Positions 3,955 to 48,455 of a stretch of 57,984 nt of DNA are shown piece after piece. The translations under genes were made by a program, and so were the position numbers. This DNA comes from Candidatus Bathyarchaeia archaeon (GTDB taxonomy: Archaea; Thermoproteota; Bathyarchaeia; Bathyarchaeales; Bathycorpusculaceae). The stretch is from assembly GCA_049969855.1 (NCBI GenBank), contig JBMFOB010000007.1:1-57984 (forward strand), read 5' to 3'. Position 1 is the stretch's first letter. Each line of letters starts with the position of its first letter. The notes below the pieces were generated by a model, which was not told the DNA's origin, ran no database searches, and was given only the letters and a program-made list of their open reading frames with translations.

Positions 3955-4412
3955 GTCTTCTTTTTAAGAAAGTTTTCAATGGTGGCTTGGCCCTCATCAT
4001 CTTTTAAAGTTTCAAGTTTTCCCTTTTCTGAAGCTGCAGAATTAACGTTTGAATTATTTGTAAGGTTCATTCTGCTGAGTATTTGCATGCAGTCAGCCCA
4101 AGCTGAGAAGAATCCGCGGTCAAAGTCTCCGTGAAGCCTACTCTTAACATGGTTTAAGAACTCCCGTCTGCAACTGTGTAATAGGGTTTTATCGTTTAAA
4201 TCCAGTTTTGAGAAAAATGCATAGGAGTCATTGTTGTTTGAGCGTCTGGCAAGCATCATTCCATACAATCCTCTAAAATAGCCCCTATTCCATTCTGTTT
4301 TATGCATTTTCTGCTTAATTTTTTCCAATTCTCGTTCTGCTTCGGTAAACTGTCTATTAACTAAAAGTTGGAAGTATCGTGTCACCAGAACCCTTGGAAC
4401 CGGCATTTTCAA
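3951..4412 (-). CDS. Hypothetical helical protein coupled to radA, with C-terminal PIP-box-like motif
   Basis: 4-bp overlap with the radA stop; internal repeat xxRGY/FF; C-terminal QATIENFL. Confidence 0.75.
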   Translation of the reverse strand: MKMPVPRVLVTRYFQLLVNRQFTEAERELEKIKQKMHKTEWNRGYFRGLYGMMLARRSNNNDSYAFFSKLDLNDKTLLHSCRREFLNHVKSRLHGDFDRGFFSAWADCMQILSRMNLTNNSNVNSAASEKGKLETLKDDEGQATIENFLKKKT

Positions 4413-5437
4413 CGCCCACGAGACTTGGACTTCTCTTCTTCGGAAACATCCTCTATGCCGTTCTCAGTTATTTTAAATATTTCTTCCCCTTCTGGCAAAT
4501 ATGGGCTTGAAACTAGGCGGGCAATTCTTACAGGTCCATGGGCAGACCTTCGAAGATACACGCGTGTGTGGCTTGTGTGCCCCACAATGTGGCCGCCGAC
4601 GGGATACACGGCATCGCCGAAAAACACGTCTGGTTTAGCCATAACCTGATTTGTCACAACAGCCACGAGGTTGAAGGCTCTTGCTAAACGAATTAGTTTA
4701 TGCATGTGTTTGTTTAGTTTCTGTTGTCTTGAAGCTAGCATTTCGCGTCCGAGGTATTCGCTTCTGAAATGGGCGGTTAAGGAGTCGACGATTATGAGTT
4801 TTACGTTATTTTGTTTTATAACGTCGTCAACGTTATCTAACAAGAACATTTGGTGGTCAGATGTGTATGCTTCGGCGTAGATGATGTTTTTAACCACTTG
4901 TTCTGGGTCGAGTCCCAAGTGGCGGGACATCTGCACAATTCTTTCAGTTCTAAAAGTATTCTCAGTGTCTATATACAATGCGGCGCCAGATAAGCCACCC
5001 CTTTCAGGCGGCAACTGGACATTAACGCAGAATTGGTGGCATAACTGGCTTTTTCCACTACCATACTCGCCATAAAATTCCGTTATGGTCTGAGTTTCCA
5101 ATCCGCCGTCAAGAATCCTGTCCAAAGCTTTGCTTCCAGTTGTTAAACGCAAAACGGTTTGGCGCATCTTTAAAAGTTCATCAGCCCTAATAAAAGAGAC
5201 GCTAATAGACGAGCGGGCAGCTTCAATGATGGCAAAAGCCTTTTTCTCGCTTATGCCTGCTGGTTCCAACTCGTGGGCTGTAGCCATTGCCAAGGATTCA
5301 ACAGTGTGGAATCCTAACTCTCTTAGTTTTTGTGCTGTGGCTGGACCTATGCCTGGAAGGTCCTCCAAAAACTCATATTTCTTTTTGAGTACGCTTTCTT
5401 CTTTCTTCTCTTCTTCCTCTGTCATCAAACGGTTCAC
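4409..5437 (-). CDS. radA: DNA repair and recombination protein RadA
   Basis: N-terminal HhH (LEDLPGIGPATA), GEYGSGKSQ Walker A, YIDTENTFR, IIVDSL Walker B, FRSEYLGR, GGHIVGH. Confidence 0.97.
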   Translation of the reverse strand: MNRLMTEEEEKKEESVLKKKYEFLEDLPGIGPATAQKLRELGFHTVESLAMATAHELEPAGISEKKAFAIIEAARSSISVSFIRADELLKMRQTVLRLTTGSKALDRILDGGLETQTITEFYGEYGSGKSQLCHQFCVNVQLPPERGGLSGAALYIDTENTFRTERIVQMSRHLGLDPEQVVKNIIYAEAYTSDHQMFLLDNVDDVIKQNNVKLIIVDSLTAHFRSEYLGREMLASRQQKLNKHMHKLIRLARAFNLVAVVTNQVMAKPDVFFGDAVYPVGGHIVGHTSHTRVYLRRSAHGPVRIARLVSSPYLPEGEEIFKITENGIEDVSEEEKSKSRGR

Positions 5438-26240: not shown

Positions 26241-28037
26241 TTACAAGATGTTGGATGGATAACGGTCATATTGTAATTCGTAAAGTTTTTTTAATTTTTC
26301 AATGCTGTCAGTCTCATTAACTGTTTTATCTGTTCTGAACCTAACTATTTTTGGCACTCTTAAGGCAAATCCGCTTGTGTACTCGTCTGTTTCTTGAATT
26401 TCTTGGTATGTGACTTCCGCAACTAATGAAGGCTTTACAAAAACTCCTTCCTCATCTTCGCCTGTTTTAGTATTTTCAACTATTGTTCTTATGGCATCCA
26501 TGGCTTCTTCTGGTAGGTTTGAAACTTTGCCAATTGTGTAAAGTTTCTTTTCCGTTGGGTCGCGGATGGCAAGCAGAAATGATGAGTATAGCCCTGCGCG
26601 TTTGCCTTTTCCGTAGAGGGCTTTTACTATTGTGCAGTCTATCGTGTCGCGTTCTGGTTTCAGTTTAAGCCATGTGTATGTGCGTTGTCCAATTTCATAG
26701 GGTGCATTCAAGTTTTTTACAACTATTCCCTCAAACTTTTTCTTTAAGGCTTCCTCATAGAAGCGCATAAGCTCCACATCACTTTGGCAGTCCACACCAT
26801 CCACAATGTATTCAGCTGGGACAACTTCTAAGAGGTATTTTCGCCTGCTTGAAAGGGGTAGGCTGACGAGTTCTTGACCGTTTAGGAATAGTATGTCAAA
26901 AGCCTTTATTGTAACCCTAACCTTTCTTTTTCTCTCTTCCAATTCTTGTGGTGTAAGTTCTCTTGGAACTGTTCTTTCAAGCAACGTCTGAAATGGAAGT
27001 GGATTCCCAGAATCATCTGTGGCTATTACTTCGCTGTCAACAATACAGCTTTGCGCCTTGAAATTTTCAGCTATTTGCACTATTTCCGGTAGCGTTTGGG
27101 ATTTTTCAACGCCTCTTCTTGAGTAAAGCCAAATTTGGGTGCCCCACTTATGGATTTGAAGTCTGCTCCCATCCAATTTGTACTCTGCTCTAGCTGGATA
27201 AACCACTTTGTCGGGCTCGTAAAGGTGGGCAAGTTGGGGTTTTATGAACTGACCTGGACGCATTTTAACCTCTGAAAGTTTGAGCATGCCTTCCGATGCC
27301 ATCGTCATGGCTTCTGGTAAGCCCAGTATGGCTGAGGCGTTTTCGATTAGTTGGGGCGGTACTTCATAGGCTTTTGCCACGGCTCTAACAACTGTGCTGG
27401 CGTAATAGCCAAGTTTTAAGTCTCCCAGTAAAAGTCTGACCATGTATTTTGCTTCTACTGGTGTGCTTACCCGCAGAAGGCTTGAAATGTATAGTTCGCG
27501 TTCCATAATTCTTTCAAGTTTTGGCAAAAACTTAATGGCTTCATAAACTTCTCCAACAGTCAATTCTTGATTTTTAGGCTTTTTGAGTAAATAAGCGACT
27601 TCGCCGTGTTCTCCATAATCTATCAAAAGTTTCCTAACATCACTTATTGGAGTATCAGTGGCTAGGCTTATGCTTCTTTCAATTAAGCCAGGTCCAATCT
27701 TCAGATTCTCTTCTGTTATTATTCCCAAGGCGAATCGGGCTTTAATTCCTAATGGCAGGTCTTGATTTTGGAAGAATTTTGTCAGCTCCGTTTCTTTTCC
27801 CTTCTTTCCACGCAAGACTGCAAGGCGCTCGTAAACTTCAACGATTTTTGAAAATGGCGTTTCTATTTTTGGTTCTATTCCTTCCATGTAAAGGCGTATG
27901 CGATGGTATGGTATTCCAATTTTCCACGTTATCTCTTCTGGCGAAAATCCAGTTTCTATTAAGCGAAGCACCGCTTCTCGCTGAGAGCCATAAGCCTTAA
28001 CAAGTTCTTCAAAGGATGGTGGTTTAACTATTGACAT
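26241..28037 (-). CDS. lig: ATP-dependent DNA ligase (DBD-AdD-OB) with extra N-terminal HTH
   Basis: Motif I EYKLDGSR, III VDSE, IIIa FDILF, IV EGIVVK, V WLKLK, VI LRVPKIVRFRTDK. About 55 extra N-terminal residues with an HTH pattern. Confidence 0.9.
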   Translation of the reverse strand: MSIVKPPSFEELVKAYGSQREAVLRLIETGFSPEEITWKIGIPYHRIRLYMEGIEPKIETPFSKIVEVYERLAVLRGKKGKETELTKFFQNQDLPLGIKARFALGIITEENLKIGPGLIERSISLATDTPISDVRKLLIDYGEHGEVAYLLKKPKNQELTVGEVYEAIKFLPKLERIMERELYISSLLRVSTPVEAKYMVRLLLGDLKLGYYASTVVRAVAKAYEVPPQLIENASAILGLPEAMTMASEGMLKLSEVKMRPGQFIKPQLAHLYEPDKVVYPARAEYKLDGSRLQIHKWGTQIWLYSRRGVEKSQTLPEIVQIAENFKAQSCIVDSEVIATDDSGNPLPFQTLLERTVPRELTPQELEERKRKVRVTIKAFDILFLNGQELVSLPLSSRRKYLLEVVPAEYIVDGVDCQSDVELMRFYEEALKKKFEGIVVKNLNAPYEIGQRTYTWLKLKPERDTIDCTIVKALYGKGKRAGLYSSFLLAIRDPTEKKLYTIGKVSNLPEEAMDAIRTIVENTKTGEDEEGVFVKPSLVAEVTYQEIQETDEYTSGFALRVPKIVRFRTDKTVNETDSIEKLKKLYELQYDRYPSNIL

Positions 28038-28046
28038 TTTGCCATT

Positions 28047-29285
28047 TCACTGTTGTTTTGTTCCTTCAGCCTTCGGTATTGGTTCTAATGCTCTTAGAAA
28101 GCCGTCGGATGTTATGTCAACCCTAATTCTTCTTCTTTCGAAGTTGCACATTCTGCAGTCTAAAACTCTGGAAATGCGCACGAATTCGCCTCGGTTAACG
28201 GCTAAGTCAACCTGCTGGTCCTGCCAATACACACGCCCGTAATCTACTAATATTGTTCCGTCTAGGTTGTGAGCTAAGCCTATTCCACCCGCCATGTCAT
28301 AGCTGTCCCAAACTTCTGAACTTCGCTGGTTAACATATAGCGCTGTTATGCCGTGAACTTGGTTGTATCTGGCTAGTTCCATGACACGATATTTTAATGC
28401 TCCACGATAGGCTTCGAGAACAGTTACGGAATCAATTATGGCTAGTTCAATTTTCTCCGTTTCTGCAACATAACGATATGTTTCTGCGAAGGTGCTCCAG
28501 TCACGAAGTTCAGGATAAGCCACAGTGTCAAGCACAAAAAGGTTTTCGCGGATTTTGTCCCAATCTAAACCCAAAATTTCAGCTTTCTGTTTAAGGCGTG
28601 ATTGCAAGTCAAAGCGTGGGGTTGCGCTTTTCCAAGTGTCTTCTGCTGTTGCGTAAAGCACTTTTCTCCCAGACGCTGCAACTCTCACGGCTATTTCTTC
28701 CACAAGAATTGATTTTCCAGCGCCCGGCAAGCCTGTTATGGCGAATTGTCCACATATTGGCAATCCGTTGAGAGATTTTCCTTCAGGCGTTAAGAAGAAA
28801 TAGTCTATGTATGTTCCTGTTGGAAATCCTATTAAGGGTTTTTTGGCTTCAACAGCCTCATCTGGTCTTAATACGAGAGAGCTTAGTTTTTCCTCTTTCC
28901 TTTCGATTTTTGTTGTCATTGGTTTTGTTGCCAATTCCCACTCGTCTGGTGGAACTTGGGCGCCTTTCATTGCTTCTGCTATGGTTTTCGCCATGGCTTT
29001 CATAAGCTTTTCAACTTCTGGCATGGCAGTTTCCCTTTCTGCTGTTGATGGTTGTGTGGGAGAAGGAACCGCTGCAGCTTTTTCTTTAGGCTTAACTTCC
29101 TCAATAATTAGTGTCCAGAGTTCGCCGCGGCGTTCTACGATACCTTTAGTTTTTAAGGATTGCAAAAGAGCGTAAGCAGAGTTTGGTCCATACTTTGGTA
29201 TACCCAAATCTTCTGCAATATCGTTCAGAGATGCCTTACCATCATGAACTTTGAGAAATTCTATTACGTCATTTTCTTCAACCAT
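28047..29285 (-). CDS. KaiC/RecA-superfamily ATPase (AF_0795-like) with N-terminal winged HTH
   Basis: GLPGAGKS Walker A, IIDSV Walker B, NQR, AGG.G.AH..DGT and DCRMC motifs; N-terminal wHTH and low-complexity linker. Confidence 0.82.
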   Translation of the reverse strand: MVEENDVIEFLKVHDGKASLNDIAEDLGIPKYGPNSAYALLQSLKTKGIVERRGELWTLIIEEVKPKEKAAAVPSPTQPSTAERETAMPEVEKLMKAMAKTIAEAMKGAQVPPDEWELATKPMTTKIERKEEKLSSLVLRPDEAVEAKKPLIGFPTGTYIDYFFLTPEGKSLNGLPICGQFAITGLPGAGKSILVEEIAVRVAASGRKVLYATAEDTWKSATPRFDLQSRLKQKAEILGLDWDKIRENLFVLDTVAYPELRDWSTFAETYRYVAETEKIELAIIDSVTVLEAYRGALKYRVMELARYNQVHGITALYVNQRSSEVWDSYDMAGGIGLAHNLDGTILVDYGRVYWQDQQVDLAVNRGEFVRISRVLDCRMCNFERRRIRVDITSDGFLRALEPIPKAEGTKQQ

Positions 29286-29333
29286 AAGACTCCCAAAATT
29301 AAATGCAACTTGAAAACTATAAAGTTCACGCTT

Positions 29334-30017
29334 TTAACGCCTAACTCGTTTGTTTTCAAGTTCCACTTTTGTGATTAGCAAATAGCCGCTTTGGTTTTTC
29401 CAAACTTTTTCTGCCGCAATAACCTTTATTCTTTTCTTGAAGAATGGTGCGTCAAGCAGGAGGGTTTCGTATTCTCCTCCCTCGCCAACAACTGAAACGC
29501 CATATTGCCTATTCAATTCCTTTAGGGCTTCTATGGTTTCTTCATCAATTTTTCTTCCAAGCCACTCTTTGTTAAAGCCAAGGGCGTAAACTCCAGTTAT
29601 GATGACATGAAATTTGAGATTCACGAGTTCCTCTAAAATTTCTATGGGATTTTTTTGCCAAAGAGGCGTTAAACATTTTAGTCCCAACTCTTCACAGATT
29701 TTTTCAATTCTCGTTTTTTGGTAATTGGAGGCTATTGCTCCTGAAACTACTGCGTCAACATCAATTTTTTCAATCACTCTTTTCAGGTCTTCGACTTCTC
29801 TTTCTTTAACCCCTAACGTTTCAGCCTTTACAAGTGGAATTCCCACAGCTTCTGAAAATAGGTCTACCAAGCGGATGTTTGGATAGTGGAACATCCAACT
29901 GTCTTCTCTTAATGGAATCATACTCACTAAACACTTCACTTCATGGCCTTCATCCAATACCTTTTGAAGTGCTAAGGTGGAGTCCTTTCCGCCAGTGGCT
30001 AAAACTGCAACTTGCAT
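29334..30017 (-). CDS. dph6: Diphthine--ammonia ligase (Dph6-like PP-loop ATPase)
   Basis: TGGKDS, SWMFH, GAIASNYQ..R, PLW and GEGGEYET motifs. Confidence 0.88.
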   Translation of the reverse strand: MQVAVLATGGKDSTLALQKVLDEGHEVKCLVSMIPLREDSWMFHYPNIRLVDLFSEAVGIPLVKAETLGVKEREVEDLKRVIEKIDVDAVVSGAIASNYQKTRIEKICEELGLKCLTPLWQKNPIEILEELVNLKFHVIITGVYALGFNKEWLGRKIDEETIEALKELNRQYGVSVVGEGGEYETLLLDAPFFKKRIKVIAAEKVWKNQSGYLLITKVELENKRVRR

Positions 30018-43012: not shown

Positions 43013-43866
43013 GCTATGTGTTCTAATTTTTTAAAAAGCAATATTTTTCCTATAGAAAGAAAAGCAAAAGGAGTTTCACCCAACTTGTAATCCAATGGTC
43101 TTGCAAGAAAAACTGTAATCCTTGAAAGAAAAGAGAGGAAATCAGCTGAAATAAAGGCGTTTTTTCTGGTTAGAAAATAATAAACGTCTCTACTGAATGA
43201 ACTTGCATATTTCCTTAAACCAAGAAAGGTTATTGGAAAGGACAAGTCTACAGCACGCCAATAAACAAGATTTGCGCCAGCTTTTTGAAACTCTTGAATA
43301 TACTTCTTCATAGTCCTAATGCGAAGGTGACTCGTATTCCTTTTTAACGTAAAATGAGGCGCCATTTCAAAGAGCAAAATGCATCTACCAGGTTTTGTGA
43401 CACGAACCATTTCATATACCGCTTTTTCCCATTTTTCTTCATCAAAAATGTGCTGAAGAACCGTTACGCAATTAACCATGTCATAAACATTATCTGGAAA
43501 GTTAAGCTCTGAAACGTTCATTAAGTGAAAATTCACGTTTTCCAATTTTCCCTTTTGCAGTCGCTTTCTGGCAAGTTCGATCATTTTTGAACTTATATCT
43601 ATGGCTGTTACCGTGCAACCCATTTTTGCAAAAGTTTCTGTCCATTTGCCGGGGCCGCAGCCTACATCCAAAACTTTTGCGGGACGCTCAAGTTTAATGA
43701 CGTTTTCAACTACATTCATGACAAAGTCTCTAGCTCTTTTATCAGCATAATCGGCAAGCCAGTTCCTTGCGGCTTTTCTCCATTTCTCCAGACGAACCTT
43801 CTTTTCATGCTCTTCAGCCTCTAAAGCCACATGGTCCCAATATTCCTCTAATACTTTCTCTTTCAA
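43000..43866 (-). CDS. Class I SAM-dependent methyltransferase
   Basis: VLDVGCGPG, IDIS..MI, VLQH, RVTKPG; 4-bp overlap with the upstream GT fusion. Confidence 0.9.
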   Translation of the reverse strand: MKEKVLEEYWDHVALEAEEHEKKVRLEKWRKAARNWLADYADKRARDFVMNVVENVIKLERPAKVLDVGCGPGKWTETFAKMGCTVTAIDISSKMIELARKRLQKGKLENVNFHLMNVSELNFPDNVYDMVNCVTVLQHIFDEEKWEKAVYEMVRVTKPGRCILLFEMAPHFTLKRNTSHLRIRTMKKYIQEFQKAGANLVYWRAVDLSFPITFLGLRKYASSFSRDVYYFLTRKNAFISADFLSFLSRITVFLARPLDYKLGETPFAFLSIGKILLFKKLEHIAYRK

Positions 43867-46800
43867 GGCTTCAACTTCCTCTTGAGAGCTTTAGTTTTGG
43901 AAATTAGTTTATTGAAAAATTTGGATGGTGTAAGAATTACAGCTGCAATAAAAATGAGGCTTGTTAATGCAATCTTTAACCCAACATCTACGTATGTTTG
44001 GCCCGTAAACTGTATTGTCATGGTTAAGTTTCCAGTTTTGTTTACGAAGAAACCGTTTACAATAGAATAAATTGGAACCGGAGAAATTTCTTCATCACCT
44101 ACTAAAGCTTTCCATAAAGGATTATAAGATTCGGAAAGCACAAGCAGAAATGGCTCGCTCGCATTGACCCGCACCTTATAGGTGCATGGGTTTACCTTTT
44201 CATATTCCACTGCGGGAGCGTTCGTTTTGCATGTGAATAATTCTGAAAGGTTTAGGTTTTCATTTTCTGATAGCGAATAAAGAAGTATTTGTCCTATCCC
44301 CACTTTTCCAATAGTGCCTATGCTTAACCTTTGCTCGCCAGCATTCAAACGGAAAGTTCCCGCATCAAACCATTCATATTTGTTTGAGCTGTTGGAAAGG
44401 GAAATTTCAGAGGTTTTTTCGCCTAATTTCAAGTATATTTTTCCATTTTCAGATGTTGAATTTACACGTATGAAGCATCGATAGTTTCCATCCCTTAAAA
44501 TAGATAAAGTTGTTGAAGTTGCAATTTTGTACGTTTCAAGTTCCCATATGCTTACTAAGGGCCATGTGGAAAAAGCAGTTATATAAATTCGCAACTTTGT
44601 GGTGTTTATTGGTTTTTCAAAAATGTGGAGGCAGGAAATGCCATTGTTAATTTGTGGACAACTAGTTCCATCAACTTCGCTCATGTTGACGAGGGTTAGC
44701 CATTCGGATTTTTCATCGTCCCAAGCTTGTATTAGATAATCTTTTGCGTATGCAGTTTCGAAAAGCACTTTAACGGCAACTATCTCTTGCGGATTTGTCC
44801 AGTTTATTTGAAGCCATTGAGGGGCGGTTTGGTTTAGGGCTGAAGCCCATCTTGTGGTTAAGTTTCCATCAGCAGCATATTTTGCTTCGTACTCAACATT
44901 TTGAAGAATCTGTGTTGAACTGGCTGAAATGGTTCCTTCGGGAGAAATGTTGAGGAGGGCATCTTCACCACTAAGCGCATGTCCTTCATAAGGTTCAACT
45001 TTGATCGTCCATTTTTGAATCTTGTTTTCTTCAAGGAAGTCTTCAGGCTGGATCACATGTATTATTTTGTTTTCGGAAGATTGTATTTTTTCTATAAACT
45101 CGTTAAGCTTTGCTTGAAATATAGATTTTTCAACTATGCAGATTGCTTCTACATCGTTGTATCCGCTTCCGTCATTTTGTAAAGTCAAAATGTGACTGCC
45201 GTTTTTGATGTTTAAATTAGCCACTTTAACCCACTTAACTGCGACCCAGTAATCAGCGGTTGGAGCGATTTCTGTAAGAAACTCGTCGTCAATGTATAAG
45301 TTCAATTTTCCTCTGTCTGGTGCGAAGGCTATTCTAATCCAAAGTTCGTACTCTCCATCCGAATTCACTGCGAATGGAATTTGCACCTTATTCTTTCCAC
45401 ATGTTGTTAGAGTTTCTTCGCCGGGAGCCAGTTTGCCCATGTCTCTCCAGAAAGAGGTGCTTATCCAATATTTTTTTTTGTCCGAGCTTGGAACAGCATA
45501 ATCTTTAGTCTTAATGAATTTTGCAGAATCGCCAAGGAGTGGTATGACGATGTCTGTCAGATTTGCACCGCTGGTGAGAACCAAAGCTTTTGAAAAATCA
45601 ATTTTTCCATTAGAAAGAATTTGTTCGGCACTGTTAGGATTTATGAAAAAAAGTGCGGTTTCATTAAGGTTAAATGAGTCTATTTTGCATAGAGATGGAA
45701 AAGTTTCTAATCCGCCAGTTACAATCACAAAATCTTTTGGAGAAAAAATTTCCTGGGTGAAATAGCCATTTTCAACTATTAAGGAATTGCTCTCATTGTA
45801 AATTATGCTGCTGCCTTCTTGGTTCAGAATAAAGTTTTTCACTTTTTCGCTGCTGTAAGATGGTATTACAACGTATTTATAATCGAATAACCCGAGAATT
45901 TTAAGGAAATCATCAGTTGCATTGCTGTAGACGAGACCTTGCCTCAAATAGTCGACAAAAGCTTTTGACGCTGGTTCCCATCCGCCATCTTGTAGTACGG
46001 GTTTATCATGGAAAATAGAACTGTCAAAACCTATATCATGAACCCAACCTATCTCGTTAAGCATGCGACAAAAAGCAAAGTCTGTTCCAGCGTTCGGGTC
46101 ATTTTCCCATTCTCCAGGACTTTTGTTAACTGTTATAATCTTATACTGTCCAGGTTGTTCAGCCATCCATTGAAATGGCTCCACGTAATCTTTAGGAATT
46201 TTATACGTGAGTAAACCGTTATAGAAGAAAAACCAACATGATATTGGTCCGCTTAAAATTATTAAAATCATAATAGCTATGCCAGCAAAACGGAAAATCT
46301 TTCTAAACGCACTGAACCACTTGCTTAAAAAGTTGATGGATACATAAAATTCTTTAACATGCTTATGTCTGAAATTTTCCATTTTAACGCTTAAAACATT
46401 GTTTTTCGATTTTTCTGGTTTTTTAACGATGTAGTTAAGTAGAAAGGTGACGAATAATGCTACAAAAAAAGCGTTAGAAAAGGCTGTCATCATCTCCCAC
46501 CTGCTTGGTCTGCGGAAAACAGCAAAATAGGGTATGTTTAACCATGCCCAAGTGAAGAAATCGCCGACGGGAGGATTAGGACCCTTGGATATAAAAACTG
46601 AAATTACAGAAGCCATCAAAAAGAAAACCGTATACCTATCTCTCCGAACTAATATAGCAGAATAAGAGATTAGAAAAATGCAAAATAGGAAAGTTTGAAC
46701 TGGAAAATCAGGCAAGCCAAAACCTCGGATATTAACAATTTTTATGTATCCCCCCTCTTCTGTTGCCCCTAATGTGAAGGCTTCCGTGAGATTTGCCGCG

Positions 46801-48455
46801 CTAAAGTATTCAGCCTCTTCAATCTGGTATTTGTACTCCTCAGATAGGAAATGCGCTTTGACATTCATAAAAAATGGAATTGTGAAAAAAGCTGTTAGAA
46901 GAAACACCGTTATCGCACAGACGGCTAAAAACTTAAGAAGATTTTTGCTCCTTGTGATGAATTTTATGTCTTGAGCCGGAAATATGAGAAATATTAACAG
47001 AAAAAGTATCATAAAAACGCCATATATTACGACGCAGTTTGCGTGGAAACCAGCAAGAAAAATTGACAAAGCTATAGTTGAATATAATATATCCTTAAGT
47101 TTTCCTGTTCTCAAAGCTCGGTCAATAAATAAGAAAATCAATGGAGCAAGAGCATAGCTGAAAACCATGTCAACATGTCCCTCTGTCAACTGAGAGAAAA
47201 GCAATGGGTTCAAAGTGTAGACCATTACGGCGAAGAAAGCGGCAATGTTATTATGAGTGTGGCTGTATGCGAAGGTGTACATGGAAAATCCAGCCAGCAG
47301 AAATGAAAGGAAAGCGAAAACTTTGATTGTGAGGACGGCGTCTACAAACACGAAATGAATAAGCATAAAGAATAAGTCAATGAGATTTATTCCTTCAACG
47401 AAGCCAAAAGAGTATGGACGCCAAATGTAAAGCCACCTATAATCCCTAGCGAAAATGTATTCTCTGGATATCCACCCAAAAATGTCGTTTCCAGCTGGAG
47501 CTTCGTTTGTGAAAAGAAAGTTTCTAAATATGATTAACGCAATTAGTGTGAAGAGAGCGGCAGTCATTAGCATGCTCCTTTTTTCACGAATCTTCGCAGC
47601 AATTTTTATTAGATTCTCCTTCGGAAACCACTTACCTACAACTCCAACACATACTCCAAGGAAATAACCTAAAAACTCCAACCCCTTCATAAAAGAAAAA
47701 GTTAACAAACCCTTTAGATTCCCAACGTAGGCCCCAATTTTCTGAATGGATGTTAAACGTAAAACTGCGTATCTTTTTAGAGCGTCTTTTGAGGCTTTCT
47801 CAATTAGATTGGGAAGTGTTTTGCCATATTTGTATGCTTTCACGCCAACATTGTAGATTGATGGTAAATTCTCAAAATGTAGGATTTTAAATTTAATTTT
47901 TCCAACCTTATATCTGGAGGCGGTGAACTTTTGAAAAAAGTGAAAGTCTTCTCCGCAAACTAGTTTTTCATCAAATCCTTCAAGTTTTAAAAAAACATCT
48001 TTTTTAAAGAAGCGGGGAATTTCCATCAATTCTTTTAAATCAGAGAGAAGTTTCCTTTCACTTTTCCGCAGTTCACCAATGATTCCGAAATTCGCATCTT
48101 CCTCAGGTATTATTATGGCTTGAATATTGCTTTCCATGCATTCTCTAACGCATTCTTCGACGATTTTTGGGTTAAGTTGCATGTCAGAATCTATGAAAAG
48201 CAGAAACTCGCCCTTCGCCTTTCTCGCTGCGTAATTTTTGGCTTCGCTTCTTTCGCATTTTAAAAGAAACACTTTCGCTTTAGATTGTCTAGCTATTCGT
48301 ATGGTATCATCTGTGCTGTAACGGTCCACTACTAAAATTTCAATTCTTTTGTAAGTTTGCTTCACAATGGATTCTAAGCATTGTTTTATGGTTTTCTGGG
48401 AATTGAAAGTTGGTATGATTATAGAAACAAGCGGCGCCGTTTTTAGCTTTTCCAC
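43863..48455 (-). CDS. GT2 + multi-TM GT-C-like (AftD/YfhO/PTPS-related) + CBM-like and F5/8 type C modules + C-terminal TM
   Basis: N-terminal GT2 (VSIIIPTFN, VDRYSTD, FIDSD, GFDE...ED); long multi-TM region with EGH motif; AADGNLTTRWAS..PQWLQI discoidin motif; LVLSESYNPLWKA..NGF YfhO-type C-terminus. GTG start after GAGGAGG. Confidence 0.8.
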   Translation of the reverse strand: MEKLKTAPLVSIIIPTFNSQKTIKQCLESIVKQTYKRIEILVVDRYSTDDTIRIARQSKAKVFLLKCERSEAKNYAARKAKGEFLLFIDSDMQLNPKIVEECVRECMESNIQAIIIPEEDANFGIIGELRKSERKLLSDLKELMEIPRFFKKDVFLKLEGFDEKLVCGEDFHFFQKFTASRYKVGKIKFKILHFENLPSIYNVGVKAYKYGKTLPNLIEKASKDALKRYAVLRLTSIQKIGAYVGNLKGLLTFSFMKGLEFLGYFLGVCVGVVGKWFPKENLIKIAAKIREKRSMLMTAALFTLIALIIFRNFLFTNEAPAGNDIFGWISREYIFARDYRWLYIWRPYSFGFVEGINLIDLFFMLIHFVFVDAVLTIKVFAFLSFLLAGFSMYTFAYSHTHNNIAAFFAVMVYTLNPLLFSQLTEGHVDMVFSYALAPLIFLFIDRALRTGKLKDILYSTIALSIFLAGFHANCVVIYGVFMILFLLIFLIFPAQDIKFITRSKNLLKFLAVCAITVFLLTAFFTIPFFMNVKAHFLSEEYKYQIEEAEYFSAANLTEAFTLGATEEGGYIKIVNIRGFGLPDFPVQTFLFCIFLISYSAILVRRDRYTVFFLMASVISVFISKGPNPPVGDFFTWAWLNIPYFAVFRRPSRWEMMTAFSNAFFVALFVTFLLNYIVKKPEKSKNNVLSVKMENFRHKHVKEFYVSINFLSKWFSAFRKIFRFAGIAIMILIILSGPISCWFFFYNGLLTYKIPKDYVEPFQWMAEQPGQYKIITVNKSPGEWENDPNAGTDFAFCRMLNEIGWVHDIGFDSSIFHDKPVLQDGGWEPASKAFVDYLRQGLVYSNATDDFLKILGLFDYKYVVIPSYSSEKVKNFILNQEGSSIIYNESNSLIVENGYFTQEIFSPKDFVIVTGGLETFPSLCKIDSFNLNETALFFINPNSAEQILSNGKIDFSKALVLTSGANLTDIVIPLLGDSAKFIKTKDYAVPSSDKKKYWISTSFWRDMGKLAPGEETLTTCGKNKVQIPFAVNSDGEYELWIRIAFAPDRGKLNLYIDDEFLTEIAPTADYWVAVKWVKVANLNIKNGSHILTLQNDGSGYNDVEAICIVEKSIFQAKLNEFIEKIQSSENKIIHVIQPEDFLEENKIQKWTIKVEPYEGHALSGEDALLNISPEGTISASSTQILQNVEYEAKYAADGNLTTRWASALNQTAPQWLQINWTNPQEIVAVKVLFETAYAKDYLIQAWDDEKSEWLTLVNMSEVDGTSCPQINNGISCLHIFEKPINTTKLRIYITAFSTWPLVSIWELETYKIATSTTLSILRDGNYRCFIRVNSTSENGKIYLKLGEKTSEISLSNSSNKYEWFDAGTFRLNAGEQRLSIGTIGKVGIGQILLYSLSENENLNLSELFTCKTNAPAVEYEKVNPCTYKVRVNASEPFLLVLSESYNPLWKALVGDEEISPVPIYSIVNGFFVNKTGNLTMTIQFTGQTYVDVGLKIALTSLIFIAAVILTPSKFFNKLISKTKALKRKLKP

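Follow-up and report, generated by a model that had tools for sequence, protein, structure and literature searches.

A KaiC-like ATPase and an accessory ATP-dependent DNA ligase are encoded side by side in the genome of an uncultured Bathyarchaeia archaeon from a hot spring or sediment. The genome is a metagenome-assembled one of 1.28 Mb and 93% completeness. Its contig C7 (JBMFOB010000007.1), a stretch of 57,984 nucleotides that was analysed as a whole, is called the window in the following. Both genes lie on the minus strand, as do all features of the pair described below. The ATPase gene (28047..29285, 412 aa) comes first, and the ligase gene (26241..28037, 598 aa) follows after a spacer of 9 bp (28038..28046). 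This arrangement had been pointed out in a preliminary description made from the sequence alone. Orthologues of the two open reading frames share 54–98% identity for the ATPase and 52–97% for the ligase, the latter aligned from residue 1. Most likely, the ATPase and the ligase act together on DNA as an accessory DNA-sealing or repair module, a reading to which we give about an even chance. It is supported by the gene anatomy, active sites that are intact by sequence, the accessory nature of the ligase, the conserved adjacency, the linked loss of the two genes and subfamily-specific additions on both proteins.

Conservation of the gene pair

Orthologues of the ligase and the ATPase were searched in the 41 closest genomes (relatives sample). 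A class sample comprised 301 evenly drawn genomes, in which the ligase type was counted at E 1e-80 or better, and a phylum sample of 401 genomes was searched for the ligase type. The relatives and class samples overlap in three genomes (G000, G016 and G025). The ligase type is present in 16 of the 41 relatives, and in all 16 the ATPase orthologue lies directly upstream on the same strand. It was found in 16 of the 301 class genomes, each of which also encodes the ATPase. The two genes are adjacent in 15 of these and lie at contig ends in the exception (G117). Both samples pooled contain 29 different genomes with this ligase type, from at least nine family codes; the genes are adjacent in 28 of them, although the compared genomes are kin and these counts do not represent independent events. 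The preliminary description had allowed that this might be the sole ligase of the genome and that its adjacency to the ATPase gene might not be conserved. Neither is the case: adjacency is kept throughout but for one genome, and a canonical ligase is encoded on another contig, C15.

Two further genomes with the ligase type were found in the phylum sample. In one of them (G328), which belongs to another class of Thermoproteota, a KaiC-like gene lies directly upstream of a ligase with the additional N-terminal domain described below. The contig is 2.3 kb long and the linker motif of the ATPase is kept. In the other (G649), the ligase is cut by the contig edge and the genome is 8% contaminated. 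The G328 locus (L037, 1056..2216) is the sole pair seen outside the class. Its ATPase has no visible winged helix and its linker motif reads PPSEWEIAEAPM. The contig ends 69 bp upstream, and a separate winged helix is indistinguishable from a lost one.

The spacer between the ATPase and ligase genes ranges from -14 to +28 bp in 10 orthologous loci. Across 45 pairs of loci, the identity of the ATPases is correlated with that of the ligases (r = 0.97), part of which would be given by shared descent alone. Identities amount to 92–97% within a genus, 63–72% within the order and 52–57% within the class, a gradient that would fit vertical descent with repeated loss. The flanking genes vary by lineage and are of housekeeping type (ABC transporter, diphthamide synthase, nitroreductase with M20 peptidase, arginyl-tRNA synthetase, radical SAM protein, MFS transporters). 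No third conserved gene and no integrase are present in the flanks of the annotated related loci. Judged by these comparisons, the two genes appear to be passed on together, both in Bathyarchaeia and in one or more further lineages of Thermoproteota. Fused ATPase-ligase proteins were not found among the longer proteins searched, which is weak evidence.

The ligase was never seen without the ATPase in the sampled genomes. The ATPase without an intact ligase is found in three genomes, all of family f6 (G156, G029 and G039). In G029 (locus L025, 5031..10781), the intact ATPase gene is separated from a ligase remnant of 113 aa by inserted genes for a P-type cation ATPase and an MFS transporter. 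The remnant carries stop codons and still has as neighbours the ABC-transporter genes, which in the window adjoin the ligase gene. Here, decay of the module is caught in progress. Short remnants of either gene with stop codons are present in G023 and G030, whereas G069 and G323 have a split or interrupted frame for the ligase. In G288, the ATPase gene is located near a contig end.

The ligase

The ligase consists of a DNA-binding domain (DBD; DNA_ligase_A_N, PF04675; residues 61–221; 27375..27857), an adenylation or nucleotidyltransferase domain (PF01068; residues 282–460; 26658..27194) and an oligonucleotide-binding (OB) fold domain (PF04679; residues 480–571; 26325..26600). All three score above their cut-offs (60.2, 145.8 and 44.9 bits with cut-offs of 24.6, 26.2 and 27.5 bits, respectively). 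The protein also passes the TIGR00574 model (291.8 bits, cut-off 217.8). Motifs I, III, IIIa, IV, V and VI are present, which places the protein among the DBD-adenylation-OB ligases. Motif I contains Lys287, and motif VI contains Arg560, Arg568, Asp570 and Lys571.

Twelve residues are invariant in all 36 aligned ligases (Lys287, Asp289, Gly290, Arg292, Glu336, Glu436, Gly437, Lys441, Lys458, Lys460, Arg560 and Arg568). Phe380, Asp570 and Lys571 are invariant in an alignment of nine rows and are kept in at least 90% of the 36 rows. By sequence, the ligase is catalytically intact. The departure from the replicative consensus that had been noted before (KPQLA, KLDGSR, DSE and RVPK) was seen in all four variants. 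The deviations in KPQLA, DSE and RVPK are real but conservative, and the catalytic positions are unchanged. A strict pattern for the PCNA-interacting peptide (PIP box) was found in none of the 23 ligases checked, canonical ones included, and is hence uninformative.

An additional, clade-specific domain of four helices precedes the DBD (residues 1–60; 27858..28037). The domain is kept in 13 orthologues and in relatives down to 29–33% overall identity. In a search of 1.84 billion protein representatives, the best 150 were examined. Nine of these align from query residue 1–5, with identities of 31–77% (P0241, P0242, P0244, P0245, P0247, P0248, P0284 and two fragments). For the other 141, the best stretch begins at ligase residue 54 or later, and full-length canonical ligases align from about query residue 60 with their own residue 3–6.

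When modelled alone, the domain forms helices at residues 9–16, 19–28, 33–40 and 44–51 (predicted local distance difference test, pLDDT, 76.8). The best fold matches are all helix-turn-helix (HTH) DNA-binding domains. They are weak (Foldseek E 0.31 or worse, VIA Z 4.4 or less) and comprise the LuxR/GerE type, sigma region 4, the HTHs of the IstA and Tc3 transposases, KorB and ParB. No Pfam or NCBIfam family scored over its cut-off; HTH_23, MerR_1 and Sigma70_r4 all remained below theirs. A search of the ESM Atlas with the domain gave no usable match. Thus, of the added N-terminal HTH proposed in the preliminary description, an extra four-helix domain of about 60 residues ahead of the DBD stands. 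Its HTH nature is likely, judged from the model and the weak fold matches, and HTH-like is a fair description.

A later start at Met51, which would make the extension an artefact, was considered and rejected. Only 8 of 13 orthologues have Met51, conservation at the protein level extends over the 50 residues preceding it, and the spacer to the ATPase gene is tiny.

A second, canonical ligase in the genome

Two proteins of the genome match PF01068. The other one is a canonical ligase of 567 aa on contig C15 (C15:10258..11961; minus strand of locus L001, 1069..2772). It is 35% identical to the ligase of the window and begins directly with the DBD. Because this canonical ligase is encoded on C15, the ligase with the N-terminal domain is accessory; a secondary role had been anticipated, with a search for a second, canonical ligase suggested as the check. 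Ligases of the canonical type, with identities of 33–38%, are encoded in nearly every genome of the relatives sample. A third ligase type (~565–590 aa) forms its own clade. It is present in many relatives and was not found in this 93%-complete genome. Bathyarchaeia can hence have up to three ATP-dependent DNA ligase paralogues, namely the canonical type, the type with the N-terminal domain and the third type.

The ligase tree (150 rows) was calculated with FastTree, a quick method, and no root was inferred. In this tree, the 14 ligases that have the N-terminal domain cluster in a single group with a Shimodaira-Hasegawa-like (SH-like) support of 100 and a stem of 0.61. The group is separate from the four canonical Bathyarchaeia ligases and from the five ligases of the third type. 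The window ligase is placed outside the canonical (replicative) archaeal group by the 60 residues before the DBD, its separate clade and its occurrence in 16 of 301 class genomes.

The alternative that the ligase with the N-terminal domain is the replicative enzyme and the C15 ligase a spare can draw on the intact catalytic motifs and is barely credible, given that the former is present in so few genomes of the class, while the C15 type is present in nearly all 41 relatives and groups with the canonical ligases of the lineage.

The KaiC-like ATPase

The ATPase is composed of an N-terminal winged helix-turn-helix (wHTH), a linker and a KaiC-like core. The wHTH (residues 1–60; 29106..29285) was assigned by Pfam and an AlphaFold model. 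HTH_IclR matches residues 6–53 with 23.4 bits (cut-off 22), and TrmB matches residues 14–54 with 20.7 bits, under its cut-off of 25.6. In the model, helices 4–13, 20–27 and 37–46 and strands 17–19, 50–53 and 56–59 (pLDDT 86–90) give the topology H-S-H-H-S-S. With a score over the cut-off and this topology, the N-terminus corresponds to a winged helix of the IclR/TrmB type, as had been proposed from the sequence.

The mean pLDDT of the model is 78.9. Most of the core is above 90, and residues 62–88 and 105–124 are of low confidence. The earlier claim of a flexible linker agrees with these two stretches but needs qualification. The second of them carries a conserved motif, PPDEWELATKPM (residues 112–123; 28917..28952; pLDDT 46–52), identified by alignment. 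Its consensus PxDEWxLAxxPM is present in all 18 rows of the ligase-linked subfamily and in none of the five rows of ligase-less paralogues from genus g51. The motif may serve as a contact peptide.

The RecA/KaiC-type core spans approximately residues 150–405 (28071..28838), with the Walker A motif GLPGAGKS at residues 185–192 and the Walker B residue Asp285. Pfam KaiC (PF06745) matches residues 173–395 with 72 bits (cut-off 26.6). Gly185, Gly188, Gly190, Lys191, Ser192, Glu197, Asp216 and Asp285 are invariant in 23 aligned relatives, and the nucleotide-binding site appears intact. The core fold is closest to PH0284 (pdb entry 2dr3; VIA Z 26.7, r.m.s. deviation of 2.2 Å over 220 residues), followed by KaiC CI (Z ~25), PH0186 (Z 24.2) and Sso2452 (Z 23.7). 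Foldseek gives a match with E 3e-14. No PDB chain was found by sequence at E 0.01 or better. The domain score, the Walker A and B motifs and the KaiC-like fold place the ATPase in the KaiC/RecA superfamily.

The nearest curated family is thermo_KaiC_2 (TIGR03878). The ATPase scores 115.2 bits (116.5 bits in the genome scan) and the cut-off is 232.2 bits. Because of this shortfall, the ATPase lies outside thermo_KaiC_2, though closest to that family.

Near the C-terminus, a CxxC pair is present (CRMC, residues 377–380; 28146..28157). Cys377 is invariant and Cys380 is kept in at least 90% of the 23 rows. Both the ligase-linked subfamily and the g51 paralogues have this pair of cysteines. Another, unrelated KaiC-like open reading frame of the window (4409..5437, minus strand, 342 aa) matches Pfam KaiC with 51.9 bits in the genome scan, and the genome has four matches to PF06745 altogether.

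Related ATPases with other neighbours

The genomes of genus g51 encode a paralogue with wHTH and KaiC domains (34–41% identical) that lacks the linker motif and occurs without a ligase (loci L019–L023). It stands in a row with PyrI, a THEP1-type NTPase and RNase HII (e.g. L019, 1420..5937). The paralogue is the last gene of this row and is followed by a family 2 glycosyltransferase (GT2) in four of the five loci. In locus L020, RNase HII is present and no glycosyltransferase follows.

Locus L047 (1..2553, minus strand) of G033, which belongs to the same order, encodes a member of thermo_KaiC_2 (TIGR03878, 319.6 bits), next an HTH protein of the near_KaiC_dom family (TIGR03879, 117 bits) and, downstream of that, reverse gyrase. 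The reverse gyrase is represented by its N-terminal part (346 bits) and is cut by the contig end. Among 251 phylum genomes scanned for both families, TIGR03878 scored over its cut-off in only one. near_KaiC_dom was found in 83 of them, with a thermo_KaiC_1 gene beside it in 10 of 13 annotated loci other than that of G033. In the own genome and its family, none of 11 genomes gave a match to it. Because thermo_KaiC_2 of G033 adjoins a separate HTH gene, an HTH beside such an ATPase is not new in itself. The statement in the preliminary description that such KaiC ATPases are single-domain proteins is accordingly only partly apt.

The possibility that the ligase N-terminal domain is a fused near_KaiC_dom was considered. 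The hhalign probability (10.6%) is no better than those of HTH controls (22.2% and 25.5%). Furthermore, hmmscan with TIGR03879 gave no match at E up to 10 for seven ligase N-terminal domains and two ATPase N-terminal pieces. Judged by these profile comparisons, specific homology of the ligase N-terminal domain to near_KaiC_dom is not supported.

Upstream signals and neighbouring genes

The gene upstream of the ATPase gene encodes a diphthamide synthase and ends at 29334. The 48-bp gap to the ATPase start holds an element that resembles a transcription factor B recognition element and TATA box, GAACTTTATA (29318..29327), and a Shine-Dalgarno-like GGGAG (29290..29294) 4 nt before the ATG. Between the last A of TTTATA and the ATG (29285) there are 32 nt, in agreement with the earlier report of a TATA-like element about 30 bp upstream. 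Of 12 orthologous loci, 10 have TTTATAG at the equivalent position, among them loci with another upstream gene. Since it is kept even where the upstream gene differs, the two-gene unit probably has its own promoter, for which GAACTTTATA is the candidate.

A second AT-rich element, GCATTTAAT, is located between the TATA-like box and GGGAG (29303..29311) and is kept in most orthologous upstream regions. It is a possible operator or an alternative TATA box.

GGGAG or GGAGAA-like runs are found at the Shine-Dalgarno position in most aligned ATPase orthologues. The 9-bp spacer before the ligase ATG has no purine run of this kind. The Shine-Dalgarno sequence of the preliminary description therefore holds for the ATPase gene and not for the ligase gene. 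Co-transcription of the two genes would be the simplest reading of the layout.

Elsewhere in the window (43863..48455, minus strand), a protein of 1530 aa is encoded that combines an N-terminal GT2 glycosyltransferase with a PTPS-related membrane domain and an F5/8 type C (discoidin) domain.

Proposed function and alternative explanations

In the preferred reading, the two genes would form a co-transcribed, self-contained module. Solved KaiC-like and aRadC proteins suggest, by analogy, that the ATPase may assemble into a ring and bind DNA via the winged helix. At certain nicks or intermediates of repair, it would then recruit its dedicated ligase, load it or gate it, with the ligase N-terminal domain and the linker motif of the ATPase as candidate contact points. 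The role in repair is inferred, as are the ring, the binding of DNA by either HTH and the physical contact of the two proteins. For ring formation, as for a DNA-stimulated ATPase activity, the models are proteins of the aRadC/PH0284 type (available text of PMC4080772). A functional partnership is suggested by analogy with accessory ligase operons (available text of PMC7470946).

Several points weigh against this reading. Contact between the ATPase and the ligase, as well as an effect of the ATPase on ligation, is conjectural. A complex prediction with the full ATPase and ligase residues 1–588, using their own alignments, reached a best score of 0.14 compared with a mark of 0.32 and is evidence neither way. 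The HTH nature of the ligase N-terminal domain is drawn from weak matches. According to the available text of PMC7470946, characterised ligases with such a DNA-binding, nucleotidyltransferase and OB-fold (DB-NT-OB) architecture seal nicks without helpers. The kinship of the compared genomes has been mentioned above. Moreover, the ATPase can, as far as the gene neighbourhoods indicate, have a role that does not need the ligase, since the f6 ATPases persist without it and the g51 paralogue adjoins unrelated genes. Finally, a plain autoregulator could also have a winged helix and be encoded first in its operon.

The last two points lead to the main rival, in which the wHTH-KaiC protein senses a signal and acts as a transcription factor or autoregulator. 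It would then time expression of the operon, and with it of the spare ligase, and make no contact with the ligase or with lesions. Winged helices of the IclR/TrmB type are found in transcription regulators, and this one is encoded by the first gene, behind a conserved promoter-like element and the second AT-rich element GCATTTAAT. Persistence of the ATPase in f6 and the unrelated neighbours of the g51 paralogue are readily accommodated. A function of KaiC-like ATPases as signalling hubs has also been put forward (Makarova et al. 2017, as cited in the available text of PMC5847659). A regulator of this kind, however, leaves unexplained why the ligase clade has a conserved N-terminal domain that is found only together with this ATPase, and why the ligase never occurs without it. 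It likewise gives no reason for the linker motif being universal in the ligase-linked rows (18/18) and missing from the ligase-less paralogues (0/5). We consider this alternative unlikely, although it survives better than the others.

The two genes could also be neighbours by descent only, with unrelated functions. The compared genomes are kin, the conserved gene order may be partly inherited, and these small genomes are densely packed. Adjacency nevertheless outlasts the replacement of both flanks across at least nine family codes and in a second class, and the spacers stay within -14 to +28 bp. Together with the ligase never being alone and the subfamily-specific additions on both proteins, this makes mere descent an improbable explanation.

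Defence and end joining were among the functions proposed in the preliminary description, and neither is borne out. A defence or mobile cassette (virus, plasmid or defence island), which could for instance seal or process foreign DNA or the host's own after an attack, might be suspected from the patchy distribution (16/301 class genomes), the variable flanks and weak P-loop matches of the ATPase to the PADLOC models mad8 (E 1.4e-5, 22.7 bits) and AbiO (E 0.0075). These matches, of which none is better than E 1.4e-5, are confined to the P-loop region, and the ligase has no match in PADLOC-DB 2.0. A search of 2.9 million viral contigs for relatives of the ligase yielded none. The flanks consist of metabolic, transporter and tRNA-synthetase genes and contain no integrase or defence genes. 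Identity that falls with taxonomic distance and the pseudogene remnants both fit vertical descent with losses. For end joining of the LigD-Ku kind, no Ku is encoded in this 93%-complete genome. Taken together, a cassette or end-joining function is highly doubtful.

The preferred reading of a joint module can be extended to related systems. In conjunction with an HTH that is adjacent or fused, ring ATPases from the thermo_KaiC_2 lineage may be dedicated ATP-driven loaders, gates or chaperones of DNA enzymes, namely of a ligase here and of reverse gyrase in G033. The ligase N-terminal domain would then serve as the docking module, in place of a free-standing HTH partner. This extension is speculative and, as a whole, rather unlikely. 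If it were true, one branch of the large and obscure archaeal KaiC-like family would gain a concrete biochemical role, and the pair would be the first ATPase-dependent ligase system in archaea. To our knowledge, no function has been assigned to most KaiC-like ATPases of archaea. A strict partnership with an easily assayed enzyme would provide an experimental handle on them. Loading or gating of the ligase by the ATPase would be a new mode of ligase targeting, unlike that by PCNA or Ku. Furthermore, some archaea keep up to three ligase paralogues, one of them with its own added domain and ATPase, while accessory ligase systems have so far been described mainly in bacteria (LigB, LigC and LigD). 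Thermostable ligases that carry extra DNA-binding modules of their own are of practical interest as well.

Comparison with known systems

An accessory-ligase operon is a known kind of system; the KaiC-like type of partner and the ligase N-terminal domain were not found described. The literature searched contains no description of a pair of KaiC-like ATPase and ligase; the main survey of KaiC proteins (Makarova et al. 2017), which may list it, is outside the coverage of that search.

A parallel in gene organization is given by the bacterial accessory ligases. According to the available text of PMC7470946, LigB is encoded with the Lhr helicase, an MPE nuclease and an exonuclease, LigC with PrimPolC and LigD with Ku. 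As in the present pair, an additional ligase is kept with a dedicated operon partner, and the partners of LigB include an ATPase. LigB also has the DBD-adenylation-OB architecture of this ligase. The pair differs in its archaeal host, in the winged-helix KaiC-like ATPase as partner and in the extra N-terminal domain of the ligase. Lhr, metallophosphoesterase, exonuclease, Ku and PrimPol are not present among the annotated flanks of the window and the related loci.

The aRadC proteins, as described in the available text of PMC4080772, are hexameric, DNA-stimulated ATPases of the KaiC-like type with DNA-repair phenotypes. The core of the ATPase shares the single-domain KaiC-like fold with this group (Sulfolobus RadC1/RadC2, Sso2452, PH0284 and PH0186). 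The likeness is one of fold alone, and among the matches listed above the Z score of Sso2452 is lower than those of PH0284 and KaiC CI. The ATPase is distinguished by the winged helix and the motif-bearing linker, and its neighbour is a ligase instead of RadA or Hjc partners.

The thermo_KaiC_2, near_KaiC_dom and reverse gyrase genes of G033 have a comparable layout, with a KaiC-like ATPase, an HTH-type module and an enzyme of DNA transactions. The HTH is a separate protein in G033, whereas in the pair an HTH-like domain is fused to the ligase and a winged helix to the ATPase. The enzyme is reverse gyrase there and a ligase here, so that only the layout is parallel.

With the canonical archaeal Lig1-type ligases (TIGR00574), the accessory ligase has the three domains and the six nucleotidyltransferase motifs in common. 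It differs from them by the extra N-terminal domain, the patchy distribution, the separate clade with its long stem and the identity of only 35% to the canonical ligase of the same genome.

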